From Phycisphaerae bacterium (lineage in GTDB: Bacteria; Planctomycetota; Phycisphaerae; FEN-1346; JAACEH01): 64,000 nt of DNA. The stretch lies in the NCBI GenBank assembly GCA_041690105.1, contig JAWLHX010000014.1, positions 740 through 64,739 on the forward strand, written 5' to 3'. Position 1 is the first letter of the stretch. Every line of letters starts with the position of its first letter. Position numbers and translations under genes: made by a program. A model generated the notes under the pieces. It was not told the origin of the DNA. It searched no databases and saw only the letters and a program-made list of their open reading frames with translations. This document shows, one piece after another, positions 2,424-59,536 of this stretch.

Positions 2424-3659
2424 CTACAGACTAAGGGCTCGGCTGACGAATTCGCTCACGCTTGTCTGGTTCTGATCGGGCAACTTGTCCAGGAGCGGAA
2501 CAGGCTCGGAGAGCATTTGCAGGTGCTTGATTTCCTTGGCCTTCTGGTGTTTGCCCACCAGAATTCCGCCGCGTACCATCCCCTGCTCTTCCAGCAGAGC
2601 GGCATAACCACCCTCGTCGCCGTGGAACCCTACGAAGCGGGCCTTCGGGAAGGCCTGCCGGGGCGAGCCGAACAGGGTGAACTTTTTCTCGCCGACACGG
2701 GTTGTGTAGTCGCTGGGGACATCGTAAGCCTCCTGCCCGCCGGCCATATTTTTGCCGGCCGTTTTGCCGGCCGCAGTAGCGTTGCCCCAGCTTGCCTGCA
2801 TCAGTTCTTTGCCACGCACGTGGTATTCGGTGCCGCTGCCAGCCGAGTAGACGTCCGGCAGATTCGTGCGCAGCTGGCTGTCGACGACAATGCCCCTGTT
2901 GACGCGCAAACCGCTGGACTCCAGCCAACCGGCGTTCGGCATGGCTCCGATGGCGAAAAAGATCGCCTGGCACGATAGCTCCGACCCGCTGCTGAGCGTT
3001 ACTCCGGTCATCCGCCCGTTCTGCCCGACAATGATCTTCACCTCGGTCGATTTACGTATCTCGGCACCCATTCGCCGCAACTCGTCTTCAACCATGCCGC
3101 CGCTGACCGTGTCGAATTGCGGAAAGCCGACGAAATCTTCGCGCACCAGCAGGGTTACCCGACGGCCGGCGTTGCAGAGGGCTTGGGTCATGTCCTGACC
3201 CAGCAGCCCGCCACCGACTACAACCGTCAGCTCGGCCTGCTCGACGGCCGCTCGCACGCGGTCGGCCTGCTCGAGGTAATGCATATGGCAGACGCCCTTG
3301 AGGTTGGCCCCGGGAATCGGAACAGGCCGCGGCGTGATGCCCACCGACAGCAGGCAATGGTCGTAACAGATGCGCTGCCCGTTGACTAGTTTAACCTCGT
3401 GGCCCAGCGGGTCGAGCGACTTGGCAGGCGTCTCCAGCAGCAACTCGATCTGCCGCTCCCGGAACCACTCGGCGTCCTTCGTCTCAAGCTCTTCGGCAGC
3501 AATCTGACCGGAGGCATATTCAACCAGCCGCGGACGGGCCACGACGCGCAGTCGCTCGTGCGACAACATGGTGATGGTGGCCTTGGGGTCGGCCTTGCGT
3601 ATTTCTTCGGCGGCATTGGTGCCGGTCGGCCCACAGCCAATTATCAGATATCGCGACAT
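2424..3659 (-). CDS. FAD/NAD(P)-dependent pyridine nucleotide-disulfide-family oxidoreductase (class III-like, no redox-active CxxxxC)
   Basis: Two Rossmann GxGxxG motifs (IIGCGPTGTNAA and VVVGGGLLGQD). It lies 5 nt downstream of nuoN on the same strand. The ORF start is TTG at 3674, with an ATG at 3657-3659. Confidence 0.75.
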   Translation of the reverse strand: MSRYLIIGCGPTGTNAAEEIRKADPKATITMLSHERLRVVARPRLVEYASGQIAAEELETKDAEWFRERQIELLLETPAKSLDPLGHEVKLVNGQRICYDHCLLSVGITPRPVPIPGANLKGVCHMHYLEQADRVRAAVEQAELTVVVGGGLLGQDMTQALCNAGRRVTLLVREDFVGFPQFDTVSGGMVEDELRRMGAEIRKSTEVKIIVGQNGRMTGVTLSSGSELSCQAIFFAIGAMPNAGWLESSGLRVNRGIVVDSQLRTNLPDVYSAGSGTEYHVRGKELMQASWGNATAAGKTAGKNMAGGQEAYDVPSDYTTRVGEKKFTLFGSPRQAFPKARFVGFHGDEGGYAALLEEQGMVRGGILVGKHQKAKEIKHLQMLSEPVPLLDKLPDQNQTSVSEFVSRALSL

Positions 3660-3679: not shown

Positions 3680-5152
3680 TTAAAGGCTGTCAAAAATAAG
3701 TTGAGCCAGCTTGCCTTGGTACACGTACGCTACCAGAACCGGCGCCACCACGACAATGGCCGCCAGAATCAGCCACATGGCTCCGGCAACCTTTCTGTCG
3801 GCCGGCACGTGTCGCCACGGTTTCTGCTGAGCGGCGTAAACCAGCATCATCCTGGCAGCGGCTATGGTCAGGCCGGCTGAAATCAGCCAGTACCAGATGG
3901 CCTTGCCCGCCGGCGCAGGCGCTTCGGCTACTGCGATTACTGCCCCGATGAGAAGCAGCAGGCCGATAATAAAAGCAGTGCCGCCCGCCACCATTCGGGA
4001 GACAATCGTGCTGACGGCCGGCAGGGACGAGGAGTCTTCGCTGAAACGGCCTAGCGTTCCGGCAAGAATGCCAAGAGCCAGCAGCATGCTCGTGCTGAAG
4101 GCCAGCGACATGACCAGCATCATGCTGTCATTGCGTTCGATAATCGGCTCGGTGCTGAACCATCCGACCGCCAGGAACAGGGCCGCCACGACCACGGCTG
4201 CAACGTATCCGCTGGCCCGCCTGGAAGAACTCTGGGCCCAGGACAGCAGCGCGGCCAGGACAATCGTCAGCACGGCCAGAGCCACAATCATCATCCGCAA
4301 TGCTTCGGCTCCGGGGCTGAGCGGAGCGGCCAGAAGGCGGGTCAGCACCACCAGACTGGCCAGCGGCGGCAACATGGCTATGTAGGGCGCCGTCGGAGCG
4401 GGGGCCGCCTGGTACAGGTCGGGCAGATGCATGTGCATGGGCACCAGGCCTAGCTGCCAGGCAAAGCCGGCCATAATCAGCCCGAGCCCCAGCACCATTA
4501 TCCCGAGTTGCGACTCGCCGGCGCGCTGCAGCCCGTCGGTAACCCCCTGGTATTGCGTATCGCCGCTGGCGGCATAAACAAGAGCCATGCCGAACAGCAA
4601 CAGTGCACTGGCCACCAGGCTGGTAATGAAATATTTGAGTGATACCTCGGTGCCGGGCAGATCGCGATGCTGCATGCCAAGCAAGATGAAGTTACAGGTC
4701 ACCACAAGAGCAATGCCGGTAAACAGGGTCAGAAAGTCGATACTGATGACGATTATGGCCAGGCCCGAGACGGCAAAGGCGAAGACTACCAGAAACTCGC
4801 CACTGCGCTCGCCCATCACCTTGAGCATGGGCAGGGCTATGATAAGGGCGACAAGCGCGCCGCCAAAAATTACCGCCTGGGCCAGGGCGCCCAGCGGATC
4901 GAGTTGCAGCAGGCCCATCAGCGGGTGCCAGTCGACCGGGTTGGGCGAAAGGTAATAAAGTGCTGCCGCAAATGCGCCCAGCAGGCCCAGCACAACCAGC
5001 ACCAGGGCGGGAATACCGGCCCGCTCGCGCCAGATCATTTTGGCAATGAGGCCCAGAACGCCGGCTCCGGCCAGCACGAAAACCGGGTATGCGGCCACAA
5101 GGTCAATGTCGTGACCATTCTCAGCAGCCAGTGTTATGGCAGAGGGCAACAC
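3680..5152 (-). CDS. nuoN: NADH-quinone oxidoreductase subunit N (antiporter-like subunit)
   Basis: [28 protein letters not shown] and [25 protein letters not shown] align with the NuoN [28 protein letters not shown] and [22 protein letters not shown] motifs. GTG start with a GGAAGTGAGG Shine-Dalgarno. Confidence 0.8.
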   Translation of the reverse strand: [490 protein letters not shown]

Positions 5153-5233: not shown

Positions 5234-5527
5234 TCAGTTCACGTCTGCGAAACTTATGCCGGAGGCCAGCATGCCGACAGCGATCAGCAGAACGGCTCCG
5301 GCTATCATCCATATAACATACATTCGCACATCGCCAGTGTGCATCCGCGATAACAGTCGCGAAGGGATGCCGAAAAGGCTACCGATAGTGCTCGCGGCCC
5401 GCTCTTTTTTCGTTCGGGGCGACAGTGCCCGGAGGATGGCCGGCACCAGCAGCAGCAGAAAACCGGCTGCGACAAGCGCCACGCCAAGAGGGTTGCGGCC
5501 AAGGTAATCCATTGCTTCCGATAGCAT
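5234..5527 (-). CDS. small hydrophobic membrane protein (2-3 TM), unknown function, between nuoK and nuoN
   Basis: 97-aa ORF with predicted TM helices (GVALVAAGFLLLLVPAILRAL; YVIWMIAGAVLLIAVGMLASGI). It sits where nuoL/nuoM would normally be, in frame with nuoN but separated from it by TGA and TAG stops. Confidence 0.35.
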   Translation of the reverse strand: MLSEAMDYLGRNPLGVALVAAGFLLLLVPAILRALSPRTKKERAASTIGSLFGIPSRLLSRMHTGDVRMYVIWMIAGAVLLIAVGMLASGISFADVN

Positions 5528-5530
5528 TAA

Positions 5531-5854
5531 TCAGCCCTTCAATGCCGTCCAATGAGCAGTCGAGATGCTCCGCCGATGCCGATAAAGGCTGACCACAATG
5601 GCCACGCCCACAGCCGCCTGTGCTGCGGTTATCATAATGATGAATATGGCGAAAATCTGCCCGTTGTAGGTACGCATGTGGTTGCTCAGAGCAATAAACA
5701 GAGTCACGGGAGCCTGCAGCATCAGTTCGACCGACATCAGCACAAACAGCATGTTTCGCCGACGCATCAGGCCGATAAGCCCAAGGGCCAGCAGCAGGAC
5801 CGAAAACATGGCTGCAACCTGCGGCGAAAAGTCATTCAGCGGTTCTATCGTCAT
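5531..5854 (-). CDS. nuoK: NADH-quinone oxidoreductase subunit K
   Basis: 107-aa three-TM protein MTIEPLNDFSPQVAAMFSVLLLALGLIGL...; its ATG overlaps the nuoJ stop in an ATGA arrangement. Confidence 0.85.
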   Translation of the reverse strand: MTIEPLNDFSPQVAAMFSVLLLALGLIGLMRRRNMLFVLMSVELMLQAPVTLFIALSNHMRTYNGQIFAIFIIMITAAQAAVGVAIVVSLYRHRRSISTAHWTALKG

Positions 5855-6732
5855 GGCCTGTTGTCTCCCTCTCGACCGCCGGTCCCGGTGCCCGACGCAG
5901 CCTTGGTATAGGTACCGGATTTTTTGCTTTCGCCGCTTGCCCTCTGGCGGCCAACGCACACTGCCCCGACCACGGCAACCGTCAGAATGAGCGAGGCCAC
6001 CTCGAATGGAACGGTGTAGCGCGTGTAAAGCTCCCAGCCCACGTGCTGAGTAAAACCGGTTATGGGCCGCAAGGGGTGCACGTCGCCAGCCGATATGGCC
6101 CGGGCCTCCTCCTCGCTCATCTCGCCCATACGTGTATCCATACCCTCGCCCACGCCATAGGCGTAGCGCGAGGTAATCTCGAAGTACCTCGGTGGCGGCG
6201 AGGCGGCAACCTGACCACTGGAGCCGCTTACCACAGCCAATAATCCGACGGCCAGCAGAAAGCCTGCAACAACCGCCCCCCATGTCCAGCGCGCAGCAAC
6301 CGGGCGTGGCCCTTCCATGCGGAGATCGATCAGCATCAGGATGAACAGGAAGGTAACAATGACGCCGCCAGCGTTAATTGCCAGCGTAATGACACCGAGA
6401 AACTCGGCCTGGTAGGCAACGAAGATGCCAGCCAGCGAAAGAAACACGGCCAGCAGCGACAGGGCGCATTGCACCGGGCGCTGCCCGAAGACGACGTGTA
6501 CGGCCGAAACAAGGGCCGTCACCGACAGCACGAAGCGCAGCAGATGGCTGACGCGGTCGATGCCTCGGCCAAAGTACCAGGCGCTGCCCACCACTATGAT
6601 GGCTCCGAGCAGCATCAGCACGATTTGCGCCGGCCGTTGCCTGACGGCCAGACCGCCGCGAAAGATATAGAAGCCGCCCACGATGATTATCCAGAACAGA
6701 AGCGCAGTCAAGCCCCGCGCCCTCCTCTCCAT
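5851..6732 (-). CDS. nuoJ: NADH-quinone oxidoreductase subunit J (with internal/C-terminal extension)
   Basis: Starts MERRARGLTALLFWIIIVGGFY and ends with the conserved NuoJ C-terminal helix ELYTRYTVPFEVASLILTVAVVGAV. The upstream 99 codons of the listed ORF overlap nuoI and are not coding here. Confidence 0.8.
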   Translation of the reverse strand: MERRARGLTALLFWIIIVGGFYIFRGGLAVRQRPAQIVLMLLGAIIVVGSAWYFGRGIDRVSHLLRFVLSVTALVSAVHVVFGQRPVQCALSLLAVFLSLAGIFVAYQAEFLGVITLAINAGGVIVTFLFILMLIDLRMEGPRPVAARWTWGAVVAGFLLAVGLLAVVSGSSGQVAASPPPRYFEITSRYAYGVGEGMDTRMGEMSEEEARAISAGDVHPLRPITGFTQHVGWELYTRYTVPFEVASLILTVAVVGAVCVGRQRASGESKKSGTYTKAASGTGTGGREGDNRP

Positions 6733-6737
6733 TTTTA

Positions 6738-7328
6738 TTACCAGCGCTGCGGGTGTTTCTCGTCCCGCGTCAGGTCGAAAATCTCCAGCAACTGCTCTTT
6801 GTTGTAAATCATCTCGTCGCGAGTCGTACCCACAAAACTGTAGATGCGGGTCAGTTCGATGGCATCTTCCGGGCAGGCTTCCTCGCACATGCCGCAATAG
6901 ATGCAACGCAACTCGTTCAGGTCGAACCGTACGGGGTACTTCTCCCGGTCGGGCCACGGCGCCTTGGCCCCTTCGATGCGTATGCAATTGGCCGGACACG
7001 CGGTCTGGCAGAGAAAGCAGGCCACGCACTTCGGGCGACCCTTTTCGTCCTTGTTCAACCGATGCACAAAGCGGTAATTAGGGCTGACCTCGCGCACCTC
7101 TTCCGGCCACTGAACGGTAAACTTTTTCTGCCAGATGTGCGTGATGCCGGTCCAGACGGTTTTGATCAGGCCAGGCAGCATCAGCTTTTGCCACCACTGA
7201 TCGACCCGGCCCAGTCGCACCGACTTCTGTGGCCCACGCTTGGGCGTATCGTAAGTTGGCCGCGGCAACTTGCTGCGCACGTAGTCGGGCGGCGGAACCT
7301 TGAATTGTGGTGATGGCAGATGCGACAC
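6738..7328 (-). CDS. nuoI: NADH-quinone oxidoreductase subunit I (2x[4Fe-4S] ferredoxin)
   Basis: CVACFLCQTACP and CIYCGMCEEACP ferredoxin motifs. Confidence 0.9.
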   Translation of the reverse strand: MSHLPSPQFKVPPPDYVRSKLPRPTYDTPKRGPQKSVRLGRVDQWWQKLMLPGLIKTVWTGITHIWQKKFTVQWPEEVREVSPNYRFVHRLNKDEKGRPKCVACFLCQTACPANCIRIEGAKAPWPDREKYPVRFDLNELRCIYCGMCEEACPEDAIELTRIYSFVGTTRDEMIYNKEQLLEIFDLTRDEKHPQRW

Positions 7329-7409
7329 GTTACTTCTCCCCTAATCTTTCGTCATCGGGCAACTCTCGCTGCGGCCCGGTTTGTTCAGCCCGGATGGCGT
7401 CCGCTTAAA

Positions 7410-8468
7410 TCAGCGGAACAGCGGCATCAGCGCCCCGGTCAACAGTATGTTCAGGAAGGCTATGGGCAGCATCACCTTCCAGCCCAGCCGCATGACCTGG
7501 TCGTACCTGAATCGCGACACAGTCCAGCGCACAGCAATAAATACGAAGCAGACCAGCAGCGTCTTGAACATGAAGGTAAGCGCCTGGATTATCGGCAACC
7601 AGGTCGGGCCCACAAGGTCGGATGTCAGCCCCGGCCAGCCGTATCCGCCAAGGAAAATTGTGGCGATAAGGGCGCTGAGGGTGAAGACGGCCGCATATTC
7701 GGCGATGAAGAACATGACGAACTTCATACTCGAATACTCGGTGTGATAGCCGCCAACAAGCTCCTGCTCGCTCTCGGGCAGATCGAACGGCATGCGGTTG
7801 GTTTCGGCAAAGGCGGCCACACAGAAGACCAGAAAACCGAGCGGCTGGCGAAAGATGTTCCAGGCCGGCAGGAAGCCGAAAAGCAGATGATCGTTCTGCT
7901 GCTGCACAATGTCCACCAGCCTGAGCGAGCCCGTGAGCATTATCACGCCGATGATCGAGGCCCCCAGGAAGAGCTCGTAAGAAAGCATCTGGGCGGCGCT
8001 GCGGATGCCGCCCAACAGACTGTATTTGTTGTTCGAGGCCCAGGCACCGAAAATGATGCCGTAAATCTCCAGCGAGGCCACGGCAATGAAGAACAGTATG
8101 CCCAGCTCCAGGTTCGAGTCGCCCAGACCGGCCACCTGCATCAGCACGCGACGACCGTCAATTTCTATCGGGTCGCCGAAGGGCACAATGGAAAAAGCCA
8201 GAATGGCCGGCACGAGAGTCATGGCCGGGGCAATGTAGTAGAGCAACTTGTCCACATTGCGCGGCGTGATGTCCTCTTTGAATATCAGCTTGATGGTATC
8301 GGCCAGCGGCTGCATGAGACCCATCGGACCCACCCGATTCGGGCCCCAGCGATCCTGCATCAACCCGCTTATGCGCCGCTCGCTCCACAGCAGCAGTCCG
8401 GCCATCAGGTTGATGATGCCGAAGACGATCAGCACTCTTATAACGGCGATGAGTATGTCGGTCATCAT
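7410..8468 (-). CDS. nuoH: NADH-quinone oxidoreductase subunit H
   Basis: 352-aa polytopic membrane protein with the NuoH/ND1 signature ([23 protein letters not shown]..., EYAAVF). Confidence 0.9.
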
Positions 8469-8473
8469 AACTT

Positions 8474-10063
8474 TTACTCGTTCTCGCTATTGCCGCGCGT
8501 ATATTTCCAGCGTCGCCCGGGTCGCTCAGGCGGGGCTGTGCCGGCCATGGCCGCCTGGCCACCAGCCACGTGCTGGGCCAGGTCGCGCAGAATTTCCCAA
8601 TCGCTGCGGGCCTGGCCGATGGGCTCCAGGGCCTGGTTAACTTCCTGCTCTACGCCATCCTCGTTAATCACAGTGCCGCTCTTTTCGTACGGCGAGGCAC
8701 CGGCCAGCACCACCGCGGCATGCTGGGTGAACTCGCCGCGCGGGAAGCAGTCCTGCACGATCAACTGTCGCAACCGACCGGCAGGGAAATCCTCTGGTAC
8801 AAAGCTCTGGCTGAAAGCCGCACCACCCGTGGCGTAAAACGTGGTGACGCGGCCTTCATTTATCATGCCCGCCAGCCTGCCCGGTTTGATAATGCTCAGG
8901 CCAACATCGCCGAGGGCCTTCTCGACGCCGCGGCGGTTCCATGCCTTTTCCTGGCTGATGGCAAAACCGTTGAATTGCAGCCGCTCATGCTGTGGCGCGT
9001 CCCAGATGGTGAACGTTGTGACGCCGAAGCTGGTCATCAGCTTGCCAAGCAACAGAGCCTCTTCGCAGGTCAGCCAAGGCGATGCGGCAACGGCCACGGT
9101 GGATGGCCCGTCCTGGTCCAGGGCCATTCTCAGGGCATTGCCGGCCGCCTGCAGGGACTCGTCCCAACTGGTGCCGATCAACTGGCCATCCCGCCGCACC
9201 GCCGGGCCGGCCAGGCGCTGGTCGTGCTGCCAGTCCTTAAAGGCAAATCGCCCGTAGTCGCAGATCCAAGTGCCGTTCACGGAGGCATTTTCGCGAGGCT
9301 TCAACCGCATTATCTGACCGCTGTTGGTGTCCACGCTGATACTGCAGGCCCGGGCGCAAAGGGCGCAGGTCGAAGCCGTCGACTTGAGCCACCAGACCCG
9401 ACACTTGAACAGGAAATCCCTGCTCAGCAGCGCTCCCACGGGACAGATGTCGACCACGTTGCCGGCCAGCGGATTATCAACCGGCTTGTCTGCATCGGCA
9501 TGAATTTCGTTATACACGCCGCGCTTGATAACCGACAATTCGCGTGTGCCGGTTATTTCGCGAAGAAATCGGACACAGCGCGTGCACATGATGCACCGGT
9601 CCTGGTACAGCACGATGTCCGGCCCCACCTCTTTGTATTCCTGCTTGACCTTTACATCCTCGAAACGGCTGGCGGCCGAGCCGAAGGCCCAACTGTAATT
9701 CTGCAACACACACTCGCCCGACTGATCGCACACCGGGCAGTCCAGCGGATGATTCGTCAGGTAGAACTCCATTACGCTGCGATGGCTTTCCAACACCCGC
9801 GGCGTGTTGGAGCGTACGACCATGCCGTCCTTAACCACCATCATGCAGGAGGGAACCAGCTTTGGCGCCCCCTCAACCTCAACCAGGCACATGCGACAGT
9901 TCGCCGGCCGCGACAGCAGAGGATGACTGCAGAAGTGCGGAATATAGATGCCGGCCGCAAGGGCCACGTCCAGCAGTATGGCACCCTCGGCGGCCTTCAG
10001 TTCGCGGCCATCAATGTTAATGCTGACTTCGCTCACGCCATCTGCTCCTTGGCCGGTTGCCAT
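8474..10063 (-). CDS. nuoG: NADH-quinone oxidoreductase subunit G, short form (Fe-S N-terminal domains only)
   Basis: Its [2Fe-2S] and [4Fe-4S] cysteine clusters ([19 protein letters not shown]; [10 protein letters not shown]; [10 protein letters not shown]) identify it. It is 529 aa, versus ~780-910 aa in Thermus/E. coli. Confidence 0.8.
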
Positions 10064-11340
10064 GCCTCGTACTTGCAGCGGCCCAGTCGGATATGCTCCT
10101 GGAACTCATCGCGGAACTTCTCGACAATACTGCCCAGGCCCCAGGTTACGGCCTCGCCAAAGGGGCAGATGGTCTGCCCCTCGATGGCCGCCAGTCGGTC
10201 GCTCATCAGGTCGATGTCGCCCTCCATCCCGCGGCCATTCTCGATGCGGTCCAGAATCTGCCGCATCCAGTGGCAGCCTTCCCGACACGGCGTGCACTCT
10301 CCGCAGGTTTCATGATCGAAAAAATGGGCCGTGTTCTGCGCTGCCCGCACCATGCAGACCGTCTCGTCCATTACTATGATGGCCGCCGAGCCAAGCATGC
10401 TGCCGATTTTGGCCAGCGATTCGAAGTTGGCCGGCACATCTATCTCATCCGGCCGCAGCACCGGGGCACTGGAACCGCCGGGGATTACCGCCTTCAAAAC
10501 CCGGTCGCCGCGAATGCCGCCGCCAAATCGGGGATCGTAAATCAGCTCTTTCAGCGTCACCGTCATCGGCGCCTCGTACAGTCCGGGCCGCTTGACATGA
10601 CCCGAAACACAGTAGAGCTTGGGTCCCGTGCTCTTGCCGGAGCCCATGGCCGCGAACTCATCGACCCCAGCAGCTATCACCAGCGGCACGCAAGCCAGGG
10701 TCTCAACATTATTTACCGTCGTCGGACGACCAAAGACGCCGCGCTGGGCGGGAAACGGCGGCTTCTGCCGGGGCCAGGCCCGGTTACCTTCAACCGTCTC
10801 CAGCAGGGCCATTTCTTCGCCGGATATGTATGTGCCCGCGCCCAACCGGATTACCACCTCCAGCGACCAGTCGGTACCCATCAACCCCTGCCCCAGCAGC
10901 CCTGCCTCGCGAGCTTCGTCGATGGCCTGCTGCAGAATTCGCCGACAGTTCGGATACTCGTAGCGCAGCAGGATGAAAGCACGTTCGGCCCGCATGGCCC
11001 AGGCGGCAAGGATGATGCCTTCGAGTACAAGGTGCGGCACGCGCTCCATCAGGTGACGATCTTTAAAGGTGCCGGGCTCGCTCTCGTCGGCATTGACGCA
11101 CAGGTAGCTTGGCCCGCTCGGTTCGGCCGGCATGAAGGACCACTTCATGGCCGCCGAGAAGCCCGCCCCGCCGCGCCCACTGAGACCGCTGCGTTTCACC
11201 TCATCCAGCATCCATTTCCGGTCGTTTCGCCCGAGCACCTGCTCCAGCGCACTGTAACCGCCGCGCTTGCGGTAGGCCTCGAGCATCTCGGGCGACTGCA
11301 CGGTGTACTGCGGAGGAATTAGCTGTAGCTGCATCGTCAC
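10033..11340 (-). CDS. nuoF: NADH-quinone oxidoreductase subunit F (51 kDa, FMN/NADH-binding)
   Basis: GAGTYISGEEMALLETVEG (FMN site) and the C-terminal 4Fe-4S cysteines CGECTPCREG. Confidence 0.9.
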   Translation of the reverse strand: MTMQLQLIPPQYTVQSPEMLEAYRKRGGYSALEQVLGRNDRKWMLDEVKRSGLSGRGGAGFSAAMKWSFMPAEPSGPSYLCVNADESEPGTFKDRHLMERVPHLVLEGIILAAWAMRAERAFILLRYEYPNCRRILQQAIDEAREAGLLGQGLMGTDWSLEVVIRLGAGTYISGEEMALLETVEGNRAWPRQKPPFPAQRGVFGRPTTVNNVETLACVPLVIAAGVDEFAAMGSGKSTGPKLYCVSGHVKRPGLYEAPMTVTLKELIYDPRFGGGIRGDRVLKAVIPGGSSAPVLRPDEIDVPANFESLAKIGSMLGSAAIIVMDETVCMVRAAQNTAHFFDHETCGECTPCREGCHWMRQILDRIENGRGMEGDIDLMSDRLAAIEGQTICPFGEAVTWGLGSIVEKFRDEFQEHIRLGRCKYEAWQPAKEQMA

Positions 11341-11876
11341 GAGCTGCGCCTCCTATAATCCTGCAGAATTTCGCTGACGCGCTGCAGCGTCAGTTTGCCG
11401 TATGGCTGATCGTCCACCAGCATGGCCGGCGCCTGCTCGCACAGGCCGAGACACTCGACCTGATGCAAGGTGAACAGGCCGTCGCTGGTCGTGCCGCCGG
11501 GCTCCACTCCAAGCTCGCGCGAGAGGTGCTCCACCAGCCCGTCGGAACCAGCCATGGCACAAGGTAGCGTGCCGCAAACACGTATGACATGCCTGCCGAC
11601 CGGCGCCCGATGCAGCACCGTGTAGAAGGTCAGCACGTCTTCCATATCGGCCTGAGTCATGCCGAAGCGCTCGGCCAGCGAGGCCGCCAGTTCGGGGCTG
11701 ATATAGTTGCATTCCTTCTGGGCAAGCTCCAGGGCCACCAGCAACACCTCGCGCGGCCGGACAGCCTGGGCCAGCAGTGCATCAATTCGCTGCGATGTTT
11801 GCTCCGATAACTTCACGCCGCCCCTGCTCCTCAAAAAAGCTATGGTGGATTGCCTACCGGTCCAGTTCGGCCGCAA
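11337..11876 (-). CDS. nuoE: NADH-quinone oxidoreductase subunit E (24 kDa, [2Fe-2S])
   Basis: The thioredoxin-like CGTLPCAMAGS...CLGLCEQAP motif set. ATGA overlap with nuoF. Confidence 0.85.
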   Translation of the reverse strand: MRPNWTGRQSTIAFLRSRGGVKLSEQTSQRIDALLAQAVRPREVLLVALELAQKECNYISPELAASLAERFGMTQADMEDVLTFYTVLHRAPVGRHVIRVCGTLPCAMAGSDGLVEHLSRELGVEPGGTTSDGLFTLHQVECLGLCEQAPAMLVDDQPYGKLTLQRVSEILQDYRRRSS

Positions 11877-13125
11877 TTATGTTCAAGGTGGACAGCACAC
11901 TTATGACATCCGACAGCAACCGCCCTTCGACCAGGTCGGGCAGAATCGAAAAATGGATGAACGATGGCGGCCTGACGCGAACGCGATACGGAAACTTCGT
12001 GCCATCGCTGATGATGTAAAAACCCAGTTCGCCATTGGCCGTCTCGTTGGCCGCATACACTTCGCCCACGGGCGGGGCCCCGCCGGTGTTGGGCATGATA
12101 AGCTCGAAATGGTGGATCATCTCCTCCATCTTGCTGTAAACCCGATGCTTGGGAGGCAAGGTCACCTTGTAGTCCGGATCCACGTTCATCTGCGGAGTCT
12201 TTTTGGGCAACTCCTTCAGGGCCTGCTTCAGAATGCGGGCCGATTGCCGCATCTCTTCGTAACGCAGAAAGTAACGGTCGAAAGAATCGCCCACTGTGCC
12301 GATTGGAATGTCGAAATCAAAAGCCTCGTAACCCAGGTATGGCTGGTCGCGCCGCAAATCCCGATCAATCCCGCTGGCCCGGGCAATGGGGCCCGTGAGG
12401 CCGTAATCGACAACCATCTCCTTCGAAATGATGCCGATGTCGCGCATGCGGCTGCGGAACATGGGGTTGTGCAGCACCAGGTCCTCCATGTCCTTCAGTT
12501 CCGGCGGGGTGCGGTCGGCCACGTAGCTGACCCGCTCATGGAAATCGGGCGGAATATCCCACAACAGGCCCCCGGTGCGCGTGTAGCTGGTCATGTAGCG
12601 GGAGCCGGTTACAAATTCGAACACGTCGTAGCACTCTTCGCGGCCGATGAAGCTCCACAGAAACGGCGTTACGCCGCCAAGCTCCAGCGGCGAGGTGCCG
12701 ATGAAGAAGCTATGGTCCTGCAGCCGGGCAACCTCGGCCAGAATGAGCCGCACCAGCTTTGTGTAATCGGTGCACTCGATGCCGTAAAGCTTCTCCACCG
12801 CGGTGTGCCAGGCCAGGTTGTTGGCGTACGGCGACATGTAATTCATGCGGTCGGTAACTGTTACGTACTGGTTGTAGGTATGATGCTCGCCCAGCTTCTC
12901 GAACCCGGAGTGCAGATAGCCGATGTGCGGCGTGCACTTGACCACGCGCTCGCCCTCCAGTTCCAGAATGAGGCGCAATGTGCCGTGCGTGGCCGGGTGC
13001 TGCGGGCCGAAGTTAAGAACCATCCGCTCGCCGGCCGGAGTATCGCCAGCGACGGGTTCGTCAACAGTATGGCCAGCAGCGGCTTTTGTCGGGGCGATAT
13101 CAGCCATTTGCCTTCCGCTCGTCAA
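11854..13125 (-). CDS. nuoD: NADH-quinone oxidoreductase subunit D (49 kDa)
   Basis: MVLNFGPQHPATHGTLRLILELEGE... is the canonical NuoD N-terminus. Confidence 0.9.
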   Translation of the reverse strand: MTSGRQMADIAPTKAAAGHTVDEPVAGDTPAGERMVLNFGPQHPATHGTLRLILELEGERVVKCTPHIGYLHSGFEKLGEHHTYNQYVTVTDRMNYMSPYANNLAWHTAVEKLYGIECTDYTKLVRLILAEVARLQDHSFFIGTSPLELGGVTPFLWSFIGREECYDVFEFVTGSRYMTSYTRTGGLLWDIPPDFHERVSYVADRTPPELKDMEDLVLHNPMFRSRMRDIGIISKEMVVDYGLTGPIARASGIDRDLRRDQPYLGYEAFDFDIPIGTVGDSFDRYFLRYEEMRQSARILKQALKELPKKTPQMNVDPDYKVTLPPKHRVYSKMEEMIHHFELIMPNTGGAPPVGEVYAANETANGELGFYIISDGTKFPYRVRVRPPSFIHFSILPDLVEGRLLSDVISVLSTLNIIAAELDR

Positions 13126-13750
13126 GTTTTCGACCTACGCTCTCATCAAGCTTCTGATCAACAGGAGACGTCTGCAGCCGGCGGCTCTCGGCCGCCTGTG
13201 GGAAATCATCGGCAACCCGGTCAAAGTTGGACCGCTCGCCCAGTCCCTTCAGCGGGTAGTCCTTGCGCAGCGGATGGCTCTGGAAGCCTTCCCACATCAG
13301 AATGCGCCGTAAATCCGGATGACCCTCAAAATGAATGCCGAACAGGTCGTATATCTCGCGCTCGGTCCAGTTGGCCAGGCTCCAGAGAGCAGTGACCGAG
13401 GGTACCGAGGCATCGTCCTCAGGCACCGGGGCCTGCACTCGCACGCGTTCCTCGCTCGCCCAGCTGAGCAGGTGATAGCTGATTGCAAAGCGTTCGGCAA
13501 AGGGCGGATGCGGATGTTTCAGGTAATCGACCCCGGCCACATCCACCGGAAAGTTAAAGCCCAGCCCGGCTCCGTCGCGCAAAGCCCGCAAAACCTCCAG
13601 AATCAGCCTGCGCTCGGCGACAATGGTCAACTCGCCCCGGTGCAGGCGCCAGTCGCGCACGCCGTGCGGCACCGCCTGGCGAATCCGGCCAACAATCTCT
13701 TCGGCACGATGCTCTTTCACCGGTCGACCTCCGCACGTCTCTCGGCCCAC
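13100..13750 (-). CDS. nuoC: NADH-quinone oxidoreductase subunit C (30 kDa)
   Basis: [26 protein letters not shown] is the NuoC C-terminal signature. Confidence 0.85.
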
Positions 13751-14298
13751 CGCTGCTGCAACTCGGACCGCCCGGCCCGACCGTCGCCAGGGGCTGATGC
13801 AATCGGCTCGGCTTTGTCCTTGTGATAATCCCCGAACTTCTCCTTCTCGATCTGTTCCTGGATCCGCATCACCGCTTCAAGCAGCCCCTCGGGCCGCGGC
13901 GGGCAACCCGGAATGTAGACATCGACCGGCAGAAACTGGTCGACGCCCTGGATGACCGCGTAGGTATCAAAAACGCCGCCCGAACTGGCACAGGCGCCCA
14001 TGGATATAACCCACTTCGGCTCGGGCATCTGCCGGTAAACCGTCTGCAGCACAGGCATCATCTTGGCCACTACACGGCCGCCGACAATCAACAAATCGCT
14101 TTGCCGCGGGCTGAAGCGCACCACCTCGGCCCCGAAACGGGCCAGGTCGTAGCGTGCAACCATTGTGCTCATCAGTTCGATGGCGCAGCAGGCTGTGCCG
14201 AAGGCCAGCGGCCAAAGGCTGTTTTTGCGTGCCCAGTTCAGGAAATCAGCGGCCCGGGTTGTCAGGTAACCCTCGCCCAGATGGCCCTCTAGCCCCAT
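13717..14298 (-). CDS. nuoB: NADH-quinone oxidoreductase subunit B (20 kDa, [4Fe-4S] N2)
   Basis: CCAIELM...GACASSGG...GCPPRPE cysteine motifs. Confidence 0.9.
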
Positions 14299-14684
14299 TC
14301 ATACGCCCCTTCGCGCCAACCGTAGAAGTAGCCTGCCAGCAACACCAGGAAAAAGACGAGCATCTCCAGCAGGATGAAATATCCCAGGTTCAGGCTCCAA
14401 CCGTAAATCAGCGACCACGGAAAGAGGAACAGCACCTCGACATCGAAGGCCAGAAAGATGATGGCCATCAGGTAGTACTCGATGGACAGCCTCAGGCGCC
14501 CGCCCCCAAGGGCAGGCATACCCGACTCGTAAGGCTGCTCCTTGACCAGGTCGCGCCGTCGCGGGCCCATCACGGCCGATATGGTTACCGTGCCTATGGC
14601 CATCAGCACAGCCAGAATCGTCAGCAGCAGAATCGGCAGATACGGACTCAGGTTGACCGTCAGATCGTCCTGCATTGAACTCAC
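14289..14684 (-). CDS. nuoA: NADH-quinone oxidoreductase subunit A
   Basis: 131-aa three-TM protein with the NuoA motif [39 protein letters not shown]. Confidence 0.85.
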
Positions 14685-14690
14685 CTTCTC

Positions 14691-15602
14691 CTAACGCGAC
14701 TGTAACTTCTGCAAGGCCTCGGCGATGGCCCGCTCGGCCGATTCCTGGCTCAGCCCCATCTCCACTCCGCGGCCACCAAACTTGACGCGCACGTCCTGGT
14801 AACGCTCCGACTCGGCCCCCGCACCCACAACCCGTTCGGACTCCTCGGCAAGCTCTTCCTCGGCCTCCTGGGGGACCTGGGTGCTGGTTACGCGGCCCGG
14901 CTGTTCCATCTGAGATTCGGTAGCCTCAACCGCTTCGGCAGCACCCTCATCCGGCGGCGTCTGCTCGCTCAGTTCCCGCTGAGCCTGGGCACGCCCACCA
15001 GGCTTTTCGCCCTCGGCCGGCTTCTTCTGCTCAGGCTTTTCGGCCTCGGCTGGCTTCTTCGCAGGTTTTGCCGCCGGTGGCTCGGCCTTTTCGGCCTTCT
15101 GCTCCCCCTTCGCTCGGGCAGCAGACTTTGCCTCCGCTGCAGGCGCTTTCGATTTCTCCTCCGCCTCCGGGGCTTCACCCTCTGCTGCGGGCGCTTTCTT
15201 CGGAGCTTCAGGCTCAGCAGCCTGCGGCTTTTTTGCCTCGGGCTTGGCCTGCGGTTTTTCCGGCTCGGCCTTCTTATTTGCTGCTTTGCGACCCTTGGCG
15301 GCCTCGGCGCCGCCAGCGCCCGCACCGGCTTCGGCCAGATCGTCCGAAATATCTTCGTCTTCCTCGGCAATCAAAGCAATAGGCTGACCAACCGGAACCT
15401 TCTCGCCCTCATTCACCAGAATTTTCCGCAGAGTGCCCGGGGCGTAGGCCTCGAAATCAATCGTCGCCTTGTCGCTCTCGATCTCGGCCAGCAACTCGCC
15501 GGCCTCCACGGCGTCACCCTCCTGCTTCAGCCAGCGCACAATGGTGCCTTCCTTCATCGTGTCGCTCAGTTGAGGCATAACAACCTGTGTCGCCATCGCC
15601 AA
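14691..15602 (-). CDS. lipoyl-domain protein: E2-like N-terminal lipoyl domain plus long Ala/Pro/Lys/Glu linker, no acyltransferase catalytic domain
   Basis: MPQLSDTMKEGTIVRWLKQEGDAVEAGELLAEIESDKATIDFEA is a canonical lipoyl attachment domain (lipoyl-Lys in SDKA). A ~170-aa low-complexity AEPEKPQAKP... linker follows, and the protein ends after ~80 more residues without the DHRxxDG catalytic core. Its stop is 6 nt before the nuoA start. Confidence 0.75.
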   Translation of the reverse strand: MAMATQVVMPQLSDTMKEGTIVRWLKQEGDAVEAGELLAEIESDKATIDFEAYAPGTLRKILVNEGEKVPVGQPIALIAEEDEDISDDLAEAGAGAGGAEAAKGRKAANKKAEPEKPQAKPEAKKPQAAEPEAPKKAPAAEGEAPEAEEKSKAPAAEAKSAARAKGEQKAEKAEPPAAKPAKKPAEAEKPEQKKPAEGEKPGGRAQAQRELSEQTPPDEGAAEAVEATESQMEQPGRVTSTQVPQEAEEELAEESERVVGAGAESERYQDVRVKFGGRGVEMGLSQESAERAIAEALQKLQSR

Positions 15603-15644: not shown

Positions 15645-16634
15645 CTAATCAGCCGCCTTTCGTCCCAGGGTCAGATTAACCGCCTCTATGACCTGCTCGG
15701 CCGATGGTATGCAGGCCTGCTCGAGTTCCTTGTTATAGGGCATCGGAACTTCGCGCCCGCTCACCCGCCTGATGGGAGCATCGAGATAATCCATGCCGAA
15801 TTCCTGAATCTGGGCCGCCACCTCGGCCATCACCCCGCATGTTCGCCAGCACTCCTCCACACATACCAGGCGGCCGGTCTTGACCACGCTCTTCAGGACA
15901 AGCTCGGTATCCATCGGCTTCAGGCAGCGCAGGTCGATTACCTCGCAGTCGACGCCCTGCCCCTCGAGTTTCCGGGCCGCCTCCAGCGAAACGTGCAGCA
16001 TGCGCGAATAGCTGACAATCGTCACGTCGGCCCCGGGGCGTTTGATGTCGCCCACGCCAACCGGCAGCAGATACTCTTCCTCGGGCACCTCGCCCTCCAG
16101 CGAGTAAAGCCCCTCGTGCTCCAGGAAGATGACCGGATCTTCCATCCGCAGGGCCGTCTTCAGCAGACCCTTGGCATCGTACGGCGTGGAGGGCATCATG
16201 ACGAACAGGCCCGGGGCATGCACGAACCAGGTTTCCAGGCTCTGCGAGTGCTGGGCCCCGAGTTGCTGGCCTCCGCCCCCGGGAGCCCGGAAGACGGCCG
16301 GCACCGGCAGAATGTTGCCCGACATGTAACGCCATTTGGAGGCATGGTTTACCAGTTGGTCCATGGCCAGCATCATGAAATTGACCGTCATGAACTCGAT
16401 GCAGGGACGCAGTCCGGCCATGGCCGAGCCGACGCCCAGGCCGGCAATGACCTGCTCGCTGATCGGCGTGTCGAGCACCCGTTGCTGGCCGAATTCTTCC
16501 AGCAACCCCTGCGTCACCTTGAACGAGCCCTGATATTCTCCCACATCCTCGCCAGCAATAAAGATGCGCATGTCGCGCCGCATCTCCTCCCTGAGGGCCT
16601 GGTTCAGGGCTTCTCGCATGCTGATTTTCTGCAT
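15645..16634 (-). CDS. pdhB: 2-oxoacid (pyruvate-type) dehydrogenase E1 component beta subunit (transketolase-like)
   Basis: MQKISMREALNQALREEMRRDMRIFIAGEDVG... is a typical E1-beta N-terminus. Start chosen at the internal ATG 16632-16634 (ORF track 16733). The substrate (pyruvate, branched-chain or acetoin) cannot be resolved from the sequence. Confidence 0.8.
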   Translation of the reverse strand: MQKISMREALNQALREEMRRDMRIFIAGEDVGEYQGSFKVTQGLLEEFGQQRVLDTPISEQVIAGLGVGSAMAGLRPCIEFMTVNFMMLAMDQLVNHASKWRYMSGNILPVPAVFRAPGGGGQQLGAQHSQSLETWFVHAPGLFVMMPSTPYDAKGLLKTALRMEDPVIFLEHEGLYSLEGEVPEEEYLLPVGVGDIKRPGADVTIVSYSRMLHVSLEAARKLEGQGVDCEVIDLRCLKPMDTELVLKSVVKTGRLVCVEECWRTCGVMAEVAAQIQEFGMDYLDAPIRRVSGREVPMPYNKELEQACIPSAEQVIEAVNLTLGRKAAD

Positions 16635-16698: not shown

Positions 16699-17715
16699 CT
16701 ATTGATCCGGGGCCTTGTAATCGGCAAAAGCAAATTCGGTCAAACGATCGAGCGGCGGCTTCGGGCTATCCTCGGCAAAGGCCACAATATCTTTAACCTG
16801 CTGCTCAATTTCGCTGCGAATGGCCTTGAAATCTTCCTCGGCCGCCTGTCCGGCGTCTATCATCCGCTGCTGCAGTCGTTTGATCGGGTCGCGCTCGCGC
16901 CAGGTGGCTACGTCTTCGCGGGTTCGGTAACGCTGCGGATCGCTCATCGAATGGCCGCGGAAGCGATACGTGCGGGCTTCGATGAAAGTGGGCCGCTGTT
17001 CGCTCTTGACATACCTGACGGCCCGGTCGATGACCTCGATCACGGCCAATACGTCCATGCCGTTTACTTTGTCGATACGCATGTTGTAGCCCAGGGCCCG
17101 TTTTGAAAGATCGACGAACGAACTGGCCCTGCTGACAGCCGTGCCCATGCCGAATTCGTTATTCTCGCAGATGAAGACGATCGGCAGATTCCACAGACTG
17201 GCCAGGTTCAGCCCCTCGTGAAAAGTGCCCTCATTGACGGCTCCGTCGCCGAAGGCACAAACCACGACCGCGTCTTCCTGACGATACTTGACCGCAAAGC
17301 CCAGACCGGTGGACACTGCTATCTGGCCGCCGACGATAGCGTCGCCGCCAAAGAACTTCAGTTCGCGACTGTACATGTGCATAGACCCGCCACGCCCCCT
17401 GGCCACGCCATCGGAGCGCCCGTAGAGTTCGGCCATGACCTGCTTCGGATCCATGCCACGGGCAATGGCATAGCCATGATCGCGGTAGGCATCGATGACA
17501 TAATCCTTGTTTGTCAGCACGTGCTCCAGCCCGACAGCCACGGCTTCTTCGCCGATATACAGGTGGCAGAAGCCGGCAATTCTGCCGCGCTGGTACATCT
17601 CGGCCGTCTTTTCCTCAAACCGCCTGATCAGTTGCATCTGCCGGTAAAGCGACAACAATTCCTTGCGCGTCAACCGGCTGGTTACGCTCAGATCGCGGCC
17701 GTCTTTCTCAGCCAT
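16699..17715 (-). CDS. pdhA: 2-oxoacid (pyruvate-type) dehydrogenase E1 component alpha subunit (TPP-binding)
   Basis: TPP-binding motif GDGAVNEGTFHEGLNLASLWNLPIVFICENN and the phosphorylation-loop region YRFRGHSMSDP. Confidence 0.85.
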   Translation of the reverse strand: MAEKDGRDLSVTSRLTRKELLSLYRQMQLIRRFEEKTAEMYQRGRIAGFCHLYIGEEAVAVGLEHVLTNKDYVIDAYRDHGYAIARGMDPKQVMAELYGRSDGVARGRGGSMHMYSRELKFFGGDAIVGGQIAVSTGLGFAVKYRQEDAVVVCAFGDGAVNEGTFHEGLNLASLWNLPIVFICENNEFGMGTAVSRASSFVDLSKRALGYNMRIDKVNGMDVLAVIEVIDRAVRYVKSEQRPTFIEARTYRFRGHSMSDPQRYRTREDVATWRERDPIKRLQQRMIDAGQAAEEDFKAIRSEIEQQVKDIVAFAEDSPKPPLDRLTEFAFADYKAPDQ

Positions 17716-17776: not shown

Positions 17777-17962
17777 TCAGTTGATGCTCACCGTCAGGCC
17801 CAGGTCGTATTGCTCCTTGCAGCCCGGGCACTGCAGCAACATCATCAGGCGGCCCCGCTCGCCACTTTTCTTGAAATATACGTGCCAGCCGCCCTTGTAA
17901 TCGCAGCTCGGGCAGTCGTGCCACTGATTATCCACCCCCAGAGAATGCCTCTGCATTGCCAT
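17777..17962 (-). CDS. small zinc-ribbon protein (CPxC...CPxC), first gene of the pdh-nuo transcription unit
   Basis: 61 aa MAMQRHSLGVDNQWHDCPSCDYKGGWHVYFKKSGERGRLMMLLQCPGCKEQYDL with two CxxC pairs. A GAAGGAG Shine-Dalgarno precedes the ATG at 17960-17962. Confidence 0.5.
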   Translation of the reverse strand: MAMQRHSLGVDNQWHDCPSCDYKGGWHVYFKKSGERGRLMMLLQCPGCKEQYDLGLTVSIN

Positions 17963-24087: not shown

Positions 24088-24480
24088 GATACTCTCCGAG
24101 GCAGTGTCGCGTGCCCTTCCGACCGCGTCAACCTACATTACTCACTCATACTCAGGATTTTATTGTTATGCAGCAAAAGGCACAACAATGAAAACCAGCT
24201 CGGGCCGGCCTGAACCCATTCAACCGCTAACTGCAACTCTTGGTGCGTATCATCCGGCCGCGTTTCGCCGCTTCTCTGCACGCGGGGGCCTCGCCCGGCG
24301 TTTTGGCCCGCTTCCGTAGAATATCACATCAATTCCCCCGCCCTTCATTCTTGCAGAGCGGGCAAAATTGTTTAGAATGCATACTTTTGCGGCAATTGGC
24401 CCGCCATCGTGCATGGCATGCAACACAGGCGGACCTTGCCCACCATCATCTACAACTTTGAGAGAAGAAGAGGAGATGTG

Positions 24481-25674
24481 ATGGCTGACAAAGTTCCTCC
24501 CAGTGTTATTGAAGAACTCGCCGCCAGCGGCCCCGGTATGGAAGTCTGGTTCGACTCCAGCCCGCTGATTTTCGCCGGCTGGGTCGATGAAGTATGCCAG
24601 CAGGCCGAGGCCGGGCATTGCGACAAGCTGCGGGCCCAGCTCAAGCGGCTGTATGTCGCCGAAGACCCCACCGAGAGCGTCTTTGTCGGCTGCACCACCA
24701 ACCCCCCGCTCTCGTGGCAGGTCATTCAGAAGGATCCCGAAACCTGGGGTCCCTGGATCCAGGCCGAATACAAGAAGCACCCGCAGATGACCCGCTCCGA
24801 GCTCTTCTGGCACACCTACCGCTCGGTGGTCAAGGCCGGTGCCCGGGCCTTCCATCCAATCTTCGAAGCCAGCAAGTACAAGCTCGGCTTCGTCAGCGGA
24901 CAGGTCGACCCGCGCGTGCTTACCGACACCGCCAAAATGGTCGAGCAGGGCGTGGCCCTCAACAAGGAATTCGATAACGTCATGATCAAGATGCCCGGCA
25001 CTGCCGAAGGCATCAAGGCCATCGAAGAAATGACCGCTCGCGGCGTGGCCACCAACGCCACCCTGACCTTCGCCCTCAGCCAGCTTCTGGCCGTGGCCGA
25101 GGCGGTCAAAAAGGGTCTGGTCCGCGCCCGGGCCAACAATGTCGACCTCTCCAAGTGGCGCAGCGTTGTCACCATGATGCTCGGCCGCCTGGAAGATCAT
25201 CCCGCATTTGCCGAGCAGGCCAAGGCCGCCGGAATCGACCTGACGCCCGAGAAGAAACGCCTGGCCGGCCTGGCCGTCTTCAAGAAGGCCTATCGGCTCT
25301 TCAAGGAGCGGGGATACGATAGCAAGATGCTGGCCGCCTCCATGCGTATCGGTCCGCAGATCGATGGCCGCAACAAGGTCTGGCACCTGGAGCATCTGGC
25401 CGGCGGCAACGTCGTCCTGACGGTCTTCCCCAACGTCTTCGAGGCCTTCATGGACGGCTACGACAATGGCGAAATCAAGTCCAACATGGACACCCCGGTC
25501 CCGCAGGAGGTCATTGACGAACTGCTCAAGACCGAGTACTTCCGCCAGGCCTACAACGAGGACGGACTGCAGCCGCACCAGTGGATCCAGTATCCTCCGG
25601 TGGTCGCCACAGGCGAAGAATTCGCCAAGGCCACGAACAACATGGAAGCCTTCGTCGGCGACAACATGAAGTAA
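24481..25674 (+). CDS. tal: transaldolase
   Basis: Transaldolase-family sequence with GCTTNPPL (TTNP motif). Start chosen at MADKVPPSVIEEL, with an AGAAGAGGAG Shine-Dalgarno. Confidence 0.8.
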   Translation: MADKVPPSVIEELAASGPGMEVWFDSSPLIFAGWVDEVCQQAEAGHCDKLRAQLKRLYVAEDPTESVFVGCTTNPPLSWQVIQKDPETWGPWIQAEYKKHPQMTRSELFWHTYRSVVKAGARAFHPIFEASKYKLGFVSGQVDPRVLTDTAKMVEQGVALNKEFDNVMIKMPGTAEGIKAIEEMTARGVATNATLTFALSQLLAVAEAVKKGLVRARANNVDLSKWRSVVTMMLGRLEDHPAFAEQAKAAGIDLTPEKKRLAGLAVFKKAYRLFKERGYDSKMLAASMRIGPQIDGRNKVWHLEHLAGGNVVLTVFPNVFEAFMDGYDNGEIKSNMDTPVPQEVIDELLKTEYFRQAYNEDGLQPHQWIQYPPVVATGEEFAKATNNMEAFVGDNMK

Positions 25675-34014: not shown

Positions 34015-34019
34015 GGATA

Positions 34020-35348: not shown

Positions 35349-35496
35349 CTCGTCTCGTGCGGCTCAGGGGCCGCCTGCTGTATTCTCGGCAACACAATTC
35401 ATCACCATAATGCGGCCATTCATCGCCGCTGCAACAATAATAATGATCACACAACGTTGCTGCGATAATCATTACAACTGTCAGGCTGCAACCGGT

Positions 35497-59132: not shown

Positions 59133-59536
59133 TTGCGAACGCCAAGGCCGCGATCATTGTCAAAAAAGATTCATACTCTTATTTGACAAAACGGAAACTT
59201 GATTCATAATTCTGGCGGAGGAGCAGAACCTTTAAGGGTGCTGCTTGTTGTTCAACGCGGGGTCGAAGCCTTTTAATGAGGCTGTACAGGCACTTCTTTA
59301 CGAGCGTTTGCAATGGTTTTGCGCTCCAGAGGAAGTCCTTGTTCGCGTCATGGAAGGTTCGGCCTTTTTTTTATTGTAAGGATTGTGCAGGAGAAGGTCT
59401 TTTTTCTGCACGTTCGGTTTCGTCAACTTGATTTGCCTGTCAGTGGCGCTAGAATGCGAATGGATGAATGCCTCGTATGAGATACTGCTTATTTGCAGCT
59501 TTTCGCGCGCCGCCCAATTCAGAAGGAGTATCAGCC

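Follow-up and report, generated by a model that had tools for sequence, protein, structure and literature searches.

In the textbook 2-oxoacid dehydrogenase complex, the catalytic core of the E2 component carries the lipoyl arms. Here we describe a gene, lip, that appears to encode such an arm without the core. It lies on the minus strand of a 64,000-nucleotide stretch of DNA from a Phycisphaerae bacterium (contig JAWLHX010000014.1, positions 740 to 64,739 of the forward strand, assembly GCA_041690105.1; hereafter the window), and its product is, as far as its sequence tells, a core-less carrier derived from E2 that ends in a novel conserved tail and occupies the genomic slot of an E2, directly after the genes pdhA and pdhB for the E1 alpha and E1 beta subunits of a pyruvate dehydrogenase (PDH). 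The gene and its parts, with lengths in amino acids (aa) and the ratio of nonsynonymous to synonymous substitution rates (dN/dS) where it applies, are as follows.

14691..15596, minus strand: lip, apparent core-less E2-derived lipoyl carrier, 301 aa, with neither peripheral-subunit-binding domain (PSBD) nor catalytic core
15369..15587, minus strand: lipoyl attachment domain, aa 4-76 (PF00364)
15009..15344, minus strand: flexible linker, aa 85-196, 82% Ala/Lys/Glu/Pro
14802..15008, minus strand: acidic region, aa 197-265, net charge -12, dN/dS 0.13-0.16
14712..14801, minus strand: invariant C-terminal motif VRVKFGGRGVEMGLSQESAERAIAEA, aa 266-295

The only Pfam domain in the predicted protein is Biotin_lipoyl (PF00364), matched over aa 6-78 with an E-value of 2.3e-20 and 72.6 bits against a gathering score of 22.1; the lipoyl lysine, K43, lies in the motif ESDKAT (codon 15468-15470) and is presumably lipoylated in vivo. 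This domain is 70% identical to that of the canonical E2 P0007, the highest identity to any E2 of the pyruvate type (E2p), and 46-49% identical to lipoyl domains that are fused to E1 beta. The linker that follows it is 112 residues long, and neither its length nor its sequence is conserved across the family described below. A first-pass annotation of this DNA had claimed both a lipoyl attachment domain and a long linker rich in Ala, Glu, Pro and Lys, and both are borne out.

Of the remaining parts of an E2 there is no sign. Neither E3_binding nor the catalytic 2-oxoacid_dh domain (PF00198, with its DHRxxDG motif) is found in the protein by Pfam even at E<=0.1, and the tail has no Pfam match to the PSBD (PF02817) at E<=10. 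The NCBIfam E2 models align to lip by their first ~190 positions only, with 98.3 bits, where the cut-off for TIGR01349 is 445. When the window was searched by tblastn with eight full-length E2s, one E3 and one isolated E2 catalytic domain, the lipoyl domain was the sole match, and custom hidden Markov models of the lipoyl, PSBD and catalytic domains, run against all six-frame open reading frames (ORFs) of the window, likewise returned the lip lipoyl domain only. The earlier claims that no frame holds a PSBD or catalytic domain, and that no E2 core or E3 gene is nearby, thus hold across all 64 kb.

The ORF of lip spans 14691..15602 on the minus strand and would give 303 aa from a TTG codon, although the ATG at 15596 is the likely start, because a purine-rich ribosome-binding site (aaGGGGa) lies 8 nt 5' of it and the homologues start MSTQLVMPQ. 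A 48-nt gap separates the stop codon of pdhB (15645) from this ATG; the two are separate genes, in the order pdhB then lip. At the other end, the TAG stop codon of lip is followed by a GTG 6 nt further on and by the probable ATG of nuoA 15 nt further on, with the ribosome-binding site of nuoA overlapping the lip stop codon. A frameshifted catalytic domain therefore has no room 3' of lip, as had been argued from the closeness of nuoA. The exact lip protein, with either start, is missing from a collection of 15 billion proteins, which does contain E1 alpha, E1 beta and the S-adenosylhomocysteine hydrolase of the same contig; the gene was probably called with a different start, or left uncalled, in database annotation.

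The architecture is not peculiar to this one contig. A search of 5.8 billion proteins recovered three proteins of the same architecture, the form represented by locus L001 (P0001-P0003, 297-316 aa); the other near-full-length matches listed in that search are ordinary E2s or lipoyl-E1 beta fusions, and the few shorter ones listed are partial or frameshifted records. We note that one of these short records, a 226-aa 'lipoyl-only' protein (P0084), is the first piece of an E2 at locus L002 (9998-11550) that is spread over three frames, one each for its lipoyl, PSBD and catalytic parts, probably through assembly frameshift errors. The best E2 matches, P0004 and P0007, were considered as members of the lineage and rejected, being located in unrelated canonical clusters. 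Further forms of the family were gathered through the closest relatives of the adjoining E1 beta and through metagenome scans.

L083/L084: lip homologue of 288 aa; E1 beta 93% identical to that of the window
L089 and L169, two independent samples: lip homologue of 192 aa; E1 beta 78% identical
L087/L088: lip homologue of 208 aa; E1 beta 74% identical
JGI contig 3300042731: lip homologue of 181 aa

At least five diverged versions of 181-316 aa are thus at hand, all in the slot after pdhA-pdhB and drawn from independent assemblies (NCBI, ENA, Logan and JGI). No close relatives of the lineage were found among the GTDB representatives, and the family appears to be confined to a small uncultured bacterial lineage. 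Within it, the linker varies from ~60 to ~190 aa and is 37% identical between close relatives, while Nei-Gojobori estimates of dN/dS, for which dS is saturated, are 0.05-0.11 for the C-terminal motif, which makes it as constrained as the lipoyl domain (0.06-0.15), and, as listed above, little higher for the acidic region. Because dN/dS is low at the two ends while the linker evolves freely, the pattern is what one would expect of a protein with a working part at either end and a free tether between them, and not of a decaying gene, and on these estimates lip is a real, selectively maintained gene. The label 'split, truncated or non-canonical', which the first-pass annotation had attached to the enzyme, is apt, and the architecture that it describes has been kept across the lineage under purifying selection.

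The tail of the protein is new. It ends in a 28-residue motif in which a Gly/Arg-rich segment leads into an amphipathic helix, and the family consensus RVKFGGRG[VF][EQ][MT]GLSxxSAxxxIxxA is found at the C-terminus in all five family types. The acidic region of ~70 residues that precedes it is limited to the subgroup formed by the window, P0001-P0003 and L083. The stretch after the linker had previously been credited only with lacking a PSBD and a catalytic domain, and that lack stands, but these ~100 residues are not featureless, as the conserved acidic region and the invariant motif attest. When the last 105 residues were made into a profile and compared with 1.84 billion representative proteins, only their own cluster was recovered, and PDB and Pfam searches with the tail gave no match; the motif alone, used as a query of the 5.8-billion-protein index, returned zero matches and missed the known family members too.

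Two possible origins for the tail were considered and rejected. The first is a diverged PSBD, to which there are short likenesses (PGGRA.AQKEI, QPGRV..TQV and ARRV...VKFGGRG), but the hhalign probability is <1% and hmmsearch scores do not exceed 8.4 bits, reached in a low-complexity stretch within a single member. The second is descent from the DHRxxDG strand and helix of the catalytic domain, for which hhalign pairs MGLSQESAERAIAEA with M.LSLS.DHRV.DG at only P=0.45. AlphaFold2 modeling of the full-length protein, from an alignment of four sequences only, reached a predicted local distance difference test (pLDDT) score of 43 and did not reproduce even the lipoyl domain; the tail modeled by itself reached pLDDT 56, with no globular fold but with a terminal helix at pLDDT ~70-80 (again from a shallow alignment). 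The acidic region is mostly without predicted structure, apart from a short helix, GRAQAQREL. Since a terminal helix is predicted without a globular fold, these models are consistent with the tail being a short docking motif that folds upon binding.

Comparison with outgroups suggests where lip came from. In loci whose E1 beta is <=62% identical to that of the window, the gene after pdhB encodes an E2 of the canonical kind, complete with lipoyl domain, PSBD and catalytic domain; examples are L170 of Armatimonadota, the loci L172 and L078, dozens of GTDB loci (mainly of Bathyarchaeia) and JGI metagenome loci, and this E2 gene is at times followed by one for E3, as in L172. The closest named E1 beta, at 62% identity, is from Armatimonadota. 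Because this is the place that a canonical E2 takes in the outgroups, lip can be said to occupy the E2 slot, and the simplest history would be that of an E2 which lost its PSBD and its catalytic domain in situ.

The genes of the string to which lip belongs, listed from its 5' end and leaving out lip itself, are as follows.

17777..17962, minus strand: Zn-ribbon ORF of 61 aa with four cysteines, first gene of the string
16699..17715, minus strand: pdhA, E1 alpha, 338 aa (TIGR03182, 461 bits against a cut-off of 394; thiamine diphosphate motif GDG...NN intact)
15645..16634, minus strand: pdhB, E1 beta, 329 aa (NF006667, 443 bits against a cut-off of 321; 100% identical to P0121)
5531..14675, minus strand: nuoA-B-C-D-E-F-G-H-I-J-K (Pfam and NCBIfam; synteny with L001, L083, L089/L169 and the JGI contig)
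5234-5527, minus strand: conserved two-helix membrane ORF of 97 aa, 3' of the nuo genes
3680-5152, minus strand: NuoN-like antiporter subunit, the sole one in the string
2424..3659, minus strand: final gene, flavoprotein of 411 aa using FAD and NAD(H), grouped with ferredoxin reductases, rubredoxin reductases or NADH oxidases

Since E1 alpha and E1 beta both exceed curated PDH cut-offs, the E1 looks functional. The order of the nuo string is the same in L001 as in the window, neither nuoL nor nuoM is present in the 64 kb, and the NuoG of the window is short (529 aa). A terminator scan of the minus strand found no terminator-like site between lip and nuoA, and lip is directly followed by nuoA in the window, L001, L083/L084, L089/L169 and the JGI contig. 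The exception is L087/L088, in which lip is followed by a convergent gene of no known function and then by an orthologue of the flavoprotein (13062-14300 in L087; 49% identity over its full length, 1.4 kb 3' of lip), with nuo genes absent there. The first-pass annotation had passed over the conservation of this string and of the flavoprotein that travels with it.

The flavoprotein was considered as a candidate E3 and rejected: it has the Pfam domain Pyr_redox_2 but no Pyr_redox_dim dimerization domain, shares no cysteine pair with its L087 orthologue that could stand for the CxxxxC redox disulfide of an E3, and scores 55.6 bits against the E3 model TIGR01350, whose cut-off is 408.8. Its matches to PadH-, NirB- and NorW-like NCBIfam models are all under their cut-offs, and its assignment to the reductase group also rests on PDB neighbors. 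The Zn-ribbon ORF (61-64 aa), with two CPxC knuckles (W-H-x-CPxC ... LQCPGCK), lies 30-60 nt 5' of pdhA in three family types (including L083, 5042-5227, and L087, 8732-8926) and in the JGI contig, does not precede pdhA in L170 or L172, which are outgroups, and has no Pfam or PDB match, the rubredoxin family included; its product might serve as an additional subunit or as a redox partner. We also note a transaldolase-family gene just 5' of the Zn-ribbon-pdhAB-lip string in L083 (3539-4732) and L087 (7273-8469). In the window a gene of this family (24409-25674, plus strand) lies 6.5 kb off and on the opposite strand, pointing to a local rearrangement.

How the lip protein might work is best approached from what its lipoyl group would need. 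An acetylated dihydrolipoyl arm requires both an acyltransferase and an oxidant, and for this reason we lean, somewhat beyond an even chance, toward lip being a lipoyl carrier that acts in trans, docked by its tail either to E1 or to a separately encoded core or E3. The protein would be lipoylated at K43, and the adjoining E1 would decarboxylate pyruvate and reductively acetylate the lipoyl group. The C-terminal motif would dock the carrier non-covalently on a partner, the simplest candidate being E1, because this is the only partner always encoded beside lip, although an acyltransferase core or E3 encoded elsewhere could serve instead. The docked tether would let the lipoyl group swing among active sites, with genes beyond the window supplying the catalytic domain for acetyl transfer to coenzyme A and the dihydrolipoyl dehydrogenase for NADH-forming re-oxidation, and co-transcription with nuo would couple the making of NADH to its oxidation. 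The domain content, the local lack of PSBD, catalytic domain and E3, the conservation, the purifying selection and the synteny are observed; we infer that lip is lipoylated and serves E1 as a substrate, that its motif docks on a partner such as E1, and that E2-core and E3 activities exist in trans.

Several observations weigh against this proposal. The partners in trans are hypothetical, and neither the window nor the related loci L001, L083 and L087 (~43 kb together) yielded a gene for a catalytic domain or an E3. The E1 beta of the clade has 17 clade-specific positions, seven of them in the C-terminal domain; reading these, or the C-terminal tails of E1 beta, as a sign of an altered PSBD-binding site would be speculative. 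Finally, the tight and conserved linkage of lip to nuo and to a flavoprotein that is not an E3 could indicate a different electron route.

That lipoyl and catalytic parts of an E2 can occur naturally as separate polypeptides is apparent from four independent metagenome-assembled genomes of Anaerolineae/Ardenticatenia (L004-L007, about 11050-12120 in each). In these uncharacterized split E2s, as with lip, a separate lipoyl polypeptide without a PSBD is encoded after pdhB; unlike lip, however, the lipoyl ORF is of ~85 aa with neither tether nor tail and is followed by a catalytic ORF of ~247 aa with an intact DHRIADG. No stand-alone catalytic ORF adjoins the lipoyl gene in the window, L001, L083 or L087. 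With the canonical PDH E2 (TIGR01349; PF00364, PF02817 and PF00198; EC 2.3.1.12) lip shares an E2p-type lipoyl domain with a DKA lysine, an Ala/Pro/Glu/Lys-rich linker and a position right after pdhA-pdhB, but it lacks the PSBD and the core-forming catalytic domain and has an end motif of its own.

Other known systems resemble lip in part. E3BP, or protein X, of eukaryotic PDH is a catalytically inactive, lipoyl-bearing paralogue of E2 that acts as an adaptor, with an E3-binding domain and an inner domain that integrates it into the core; lip is likewise lipoyl-bearing and without catalysis, whereas neither of those two domains is detectable in it. In the hybrid complex of PDH and 2-oxoglutarate dehydrogenase of Corynebacterium, the lipoyl arms serve the active sites of another enzyme (PMC7568260), and in the 2-oxoglutarate dehydrogenase of eukaryotes a small, largely unstructured adaptor, MRPS36, takes the place of the PSBD (PMC9974300). 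Both differ from lip in having no sequence similarity to it, in occurring in other lineages and in retaining the E2 catalytic core. Our literature searches found no report of an E2 without its core or of an E2-type lipoyl protein standing alone. If the acetyltransferase of a trans-acting lip carrier is indeed a separate polypeptide, the system would amount to a PDH that is modular and split by nature, one that would allow a test of how much weight covalent tethering has in substrate channeling, and it would offer a new short docking motif for the engineering of 2-oxoacid dehydrogenase complexes.

The most serious competitor, which we regard as a distinctly less probable but real possibility, is that lip is an accessory or regulatory lipoyl arm on E1, dispensable for core catalysis and working beside a complete E2p encoded elsewhere. 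There is a parallel in the alphaproteobacterial lipoyl-E1 beta fusion (NF008854/PRK11892), in which, as here, the lipoyl domain and linker go with E1 and not with the E2 core. Lip (at model positions 1-153) and the E1 beta of the window (at model positions 138-459) jointly span the fusion model PRK11892, fusions are among the matches (P0069, P0079, P0099, P0165 and P0199), and E2 genes unlinked from pdhAB, as in Chitinophagales loci, are common. The fusions, however, carry the lipoyl domain covalently at the N-terminus of E1 beta in the presence of a full E2, whereas lip is separate, downstream and has its own motif; the E1 beta of the window starts MQKISM and has no lipoyl domain. Moreover, the order pdhB then lip is opposite to that expected of a split fusion, lip sits exactly where the outgroups keep their only local E2, and a second E2 was not seen in the lineage within the window and related loci.

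An improbable alternative is that lip acts outside 2-oxoacid oxidation altogether, either as a lipoyl-relay donor, the role of GcvH in Firmicutes, or in a dithiol redox or antioxidant relay such as that of mycobacterial DlaT with AhpD. A stand-alone lipoyl protein without catalytic domains would suit such a role, and a gene neighboring lip in L087 has a very weak thioredoxin match (E=0.05). The strict position right after pdhA-pdhB and the E2p-type lipoyl domain nevertheless indicate E1 as the partner, and the GcvH model GCV_H (PF01597) scores 14.9 bits on lip (E=0.025), below its threshold of 22.2.

Also doubtful, to a slightly greater degree, is a pyruvate oxidation that dispenses with an E2 core and E3, in which the docked carrier, loaded by E1, would pass electrons, and possibly the acetyl group, to partners encoded in the same string. 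The candidates for the electron outlet are NuoEFG of an unusual single-antiporter complex I, the ferredoxin-reductase-like flavoprotein and the 61-aa four-cysteine protein. Much of the neighborhood fits: lip directly precedes nuoA in the window and in four other types of the family, and in the window no terminator-like site parts the two genes; the flavoprotein is kept beside pdhAB-lip even in L087, where nuo is missing; the Zn-ribbon ORF 5' of pdhA is specific to the lineage; and E2 core and E3 are absent from the window, L001, L083 and L087. Yet the flavoprotein has neither a conserved redox cysteine pair nor the E3 dimerization domain and thus no obvious means of dithiol oxidation, the Zn-ribbon ORF has no match to the rubredoxin family, and something would still have to accept the acetyl group from the lipoyl arm, while co-transcription of a producer and an oxidizer of NADH is trivially explained by shared regulation. 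Should these genomes have no core or E3, pyruvate oxidation would be tied to respiration in an undescribed manner.

Least of all do we credit a pseudogene, a sequencing frameshift or an assembly truncation of an ordinary E2, since, although frameshifted E2s do exist in assemblies (L002 is an example), the same stop position and tail recur in assemblies made independently (NCBI, ENA, Logan and JGI), dN/dS lies at 0.05-0.16 once the linker is set aside, nuoA follows 6-15 nt past the stop codon, and no frame holds a PSBD or catalytic remnant.

A few features elsewhere in the window deserve mention. Rfam and tRNA scans of the window gave no matches. Three tandem HtrA-like genes, encoding trypsin-like protease and PDZ domains, are located at 32506-36834 on the minus strand, and the plus strand carries a 960-aa fusion of DUF1638 with hydantoinase/oxoprolinase (56206-59088) and a PEP-CTERM protein of the FxDxF type (59468-60460).

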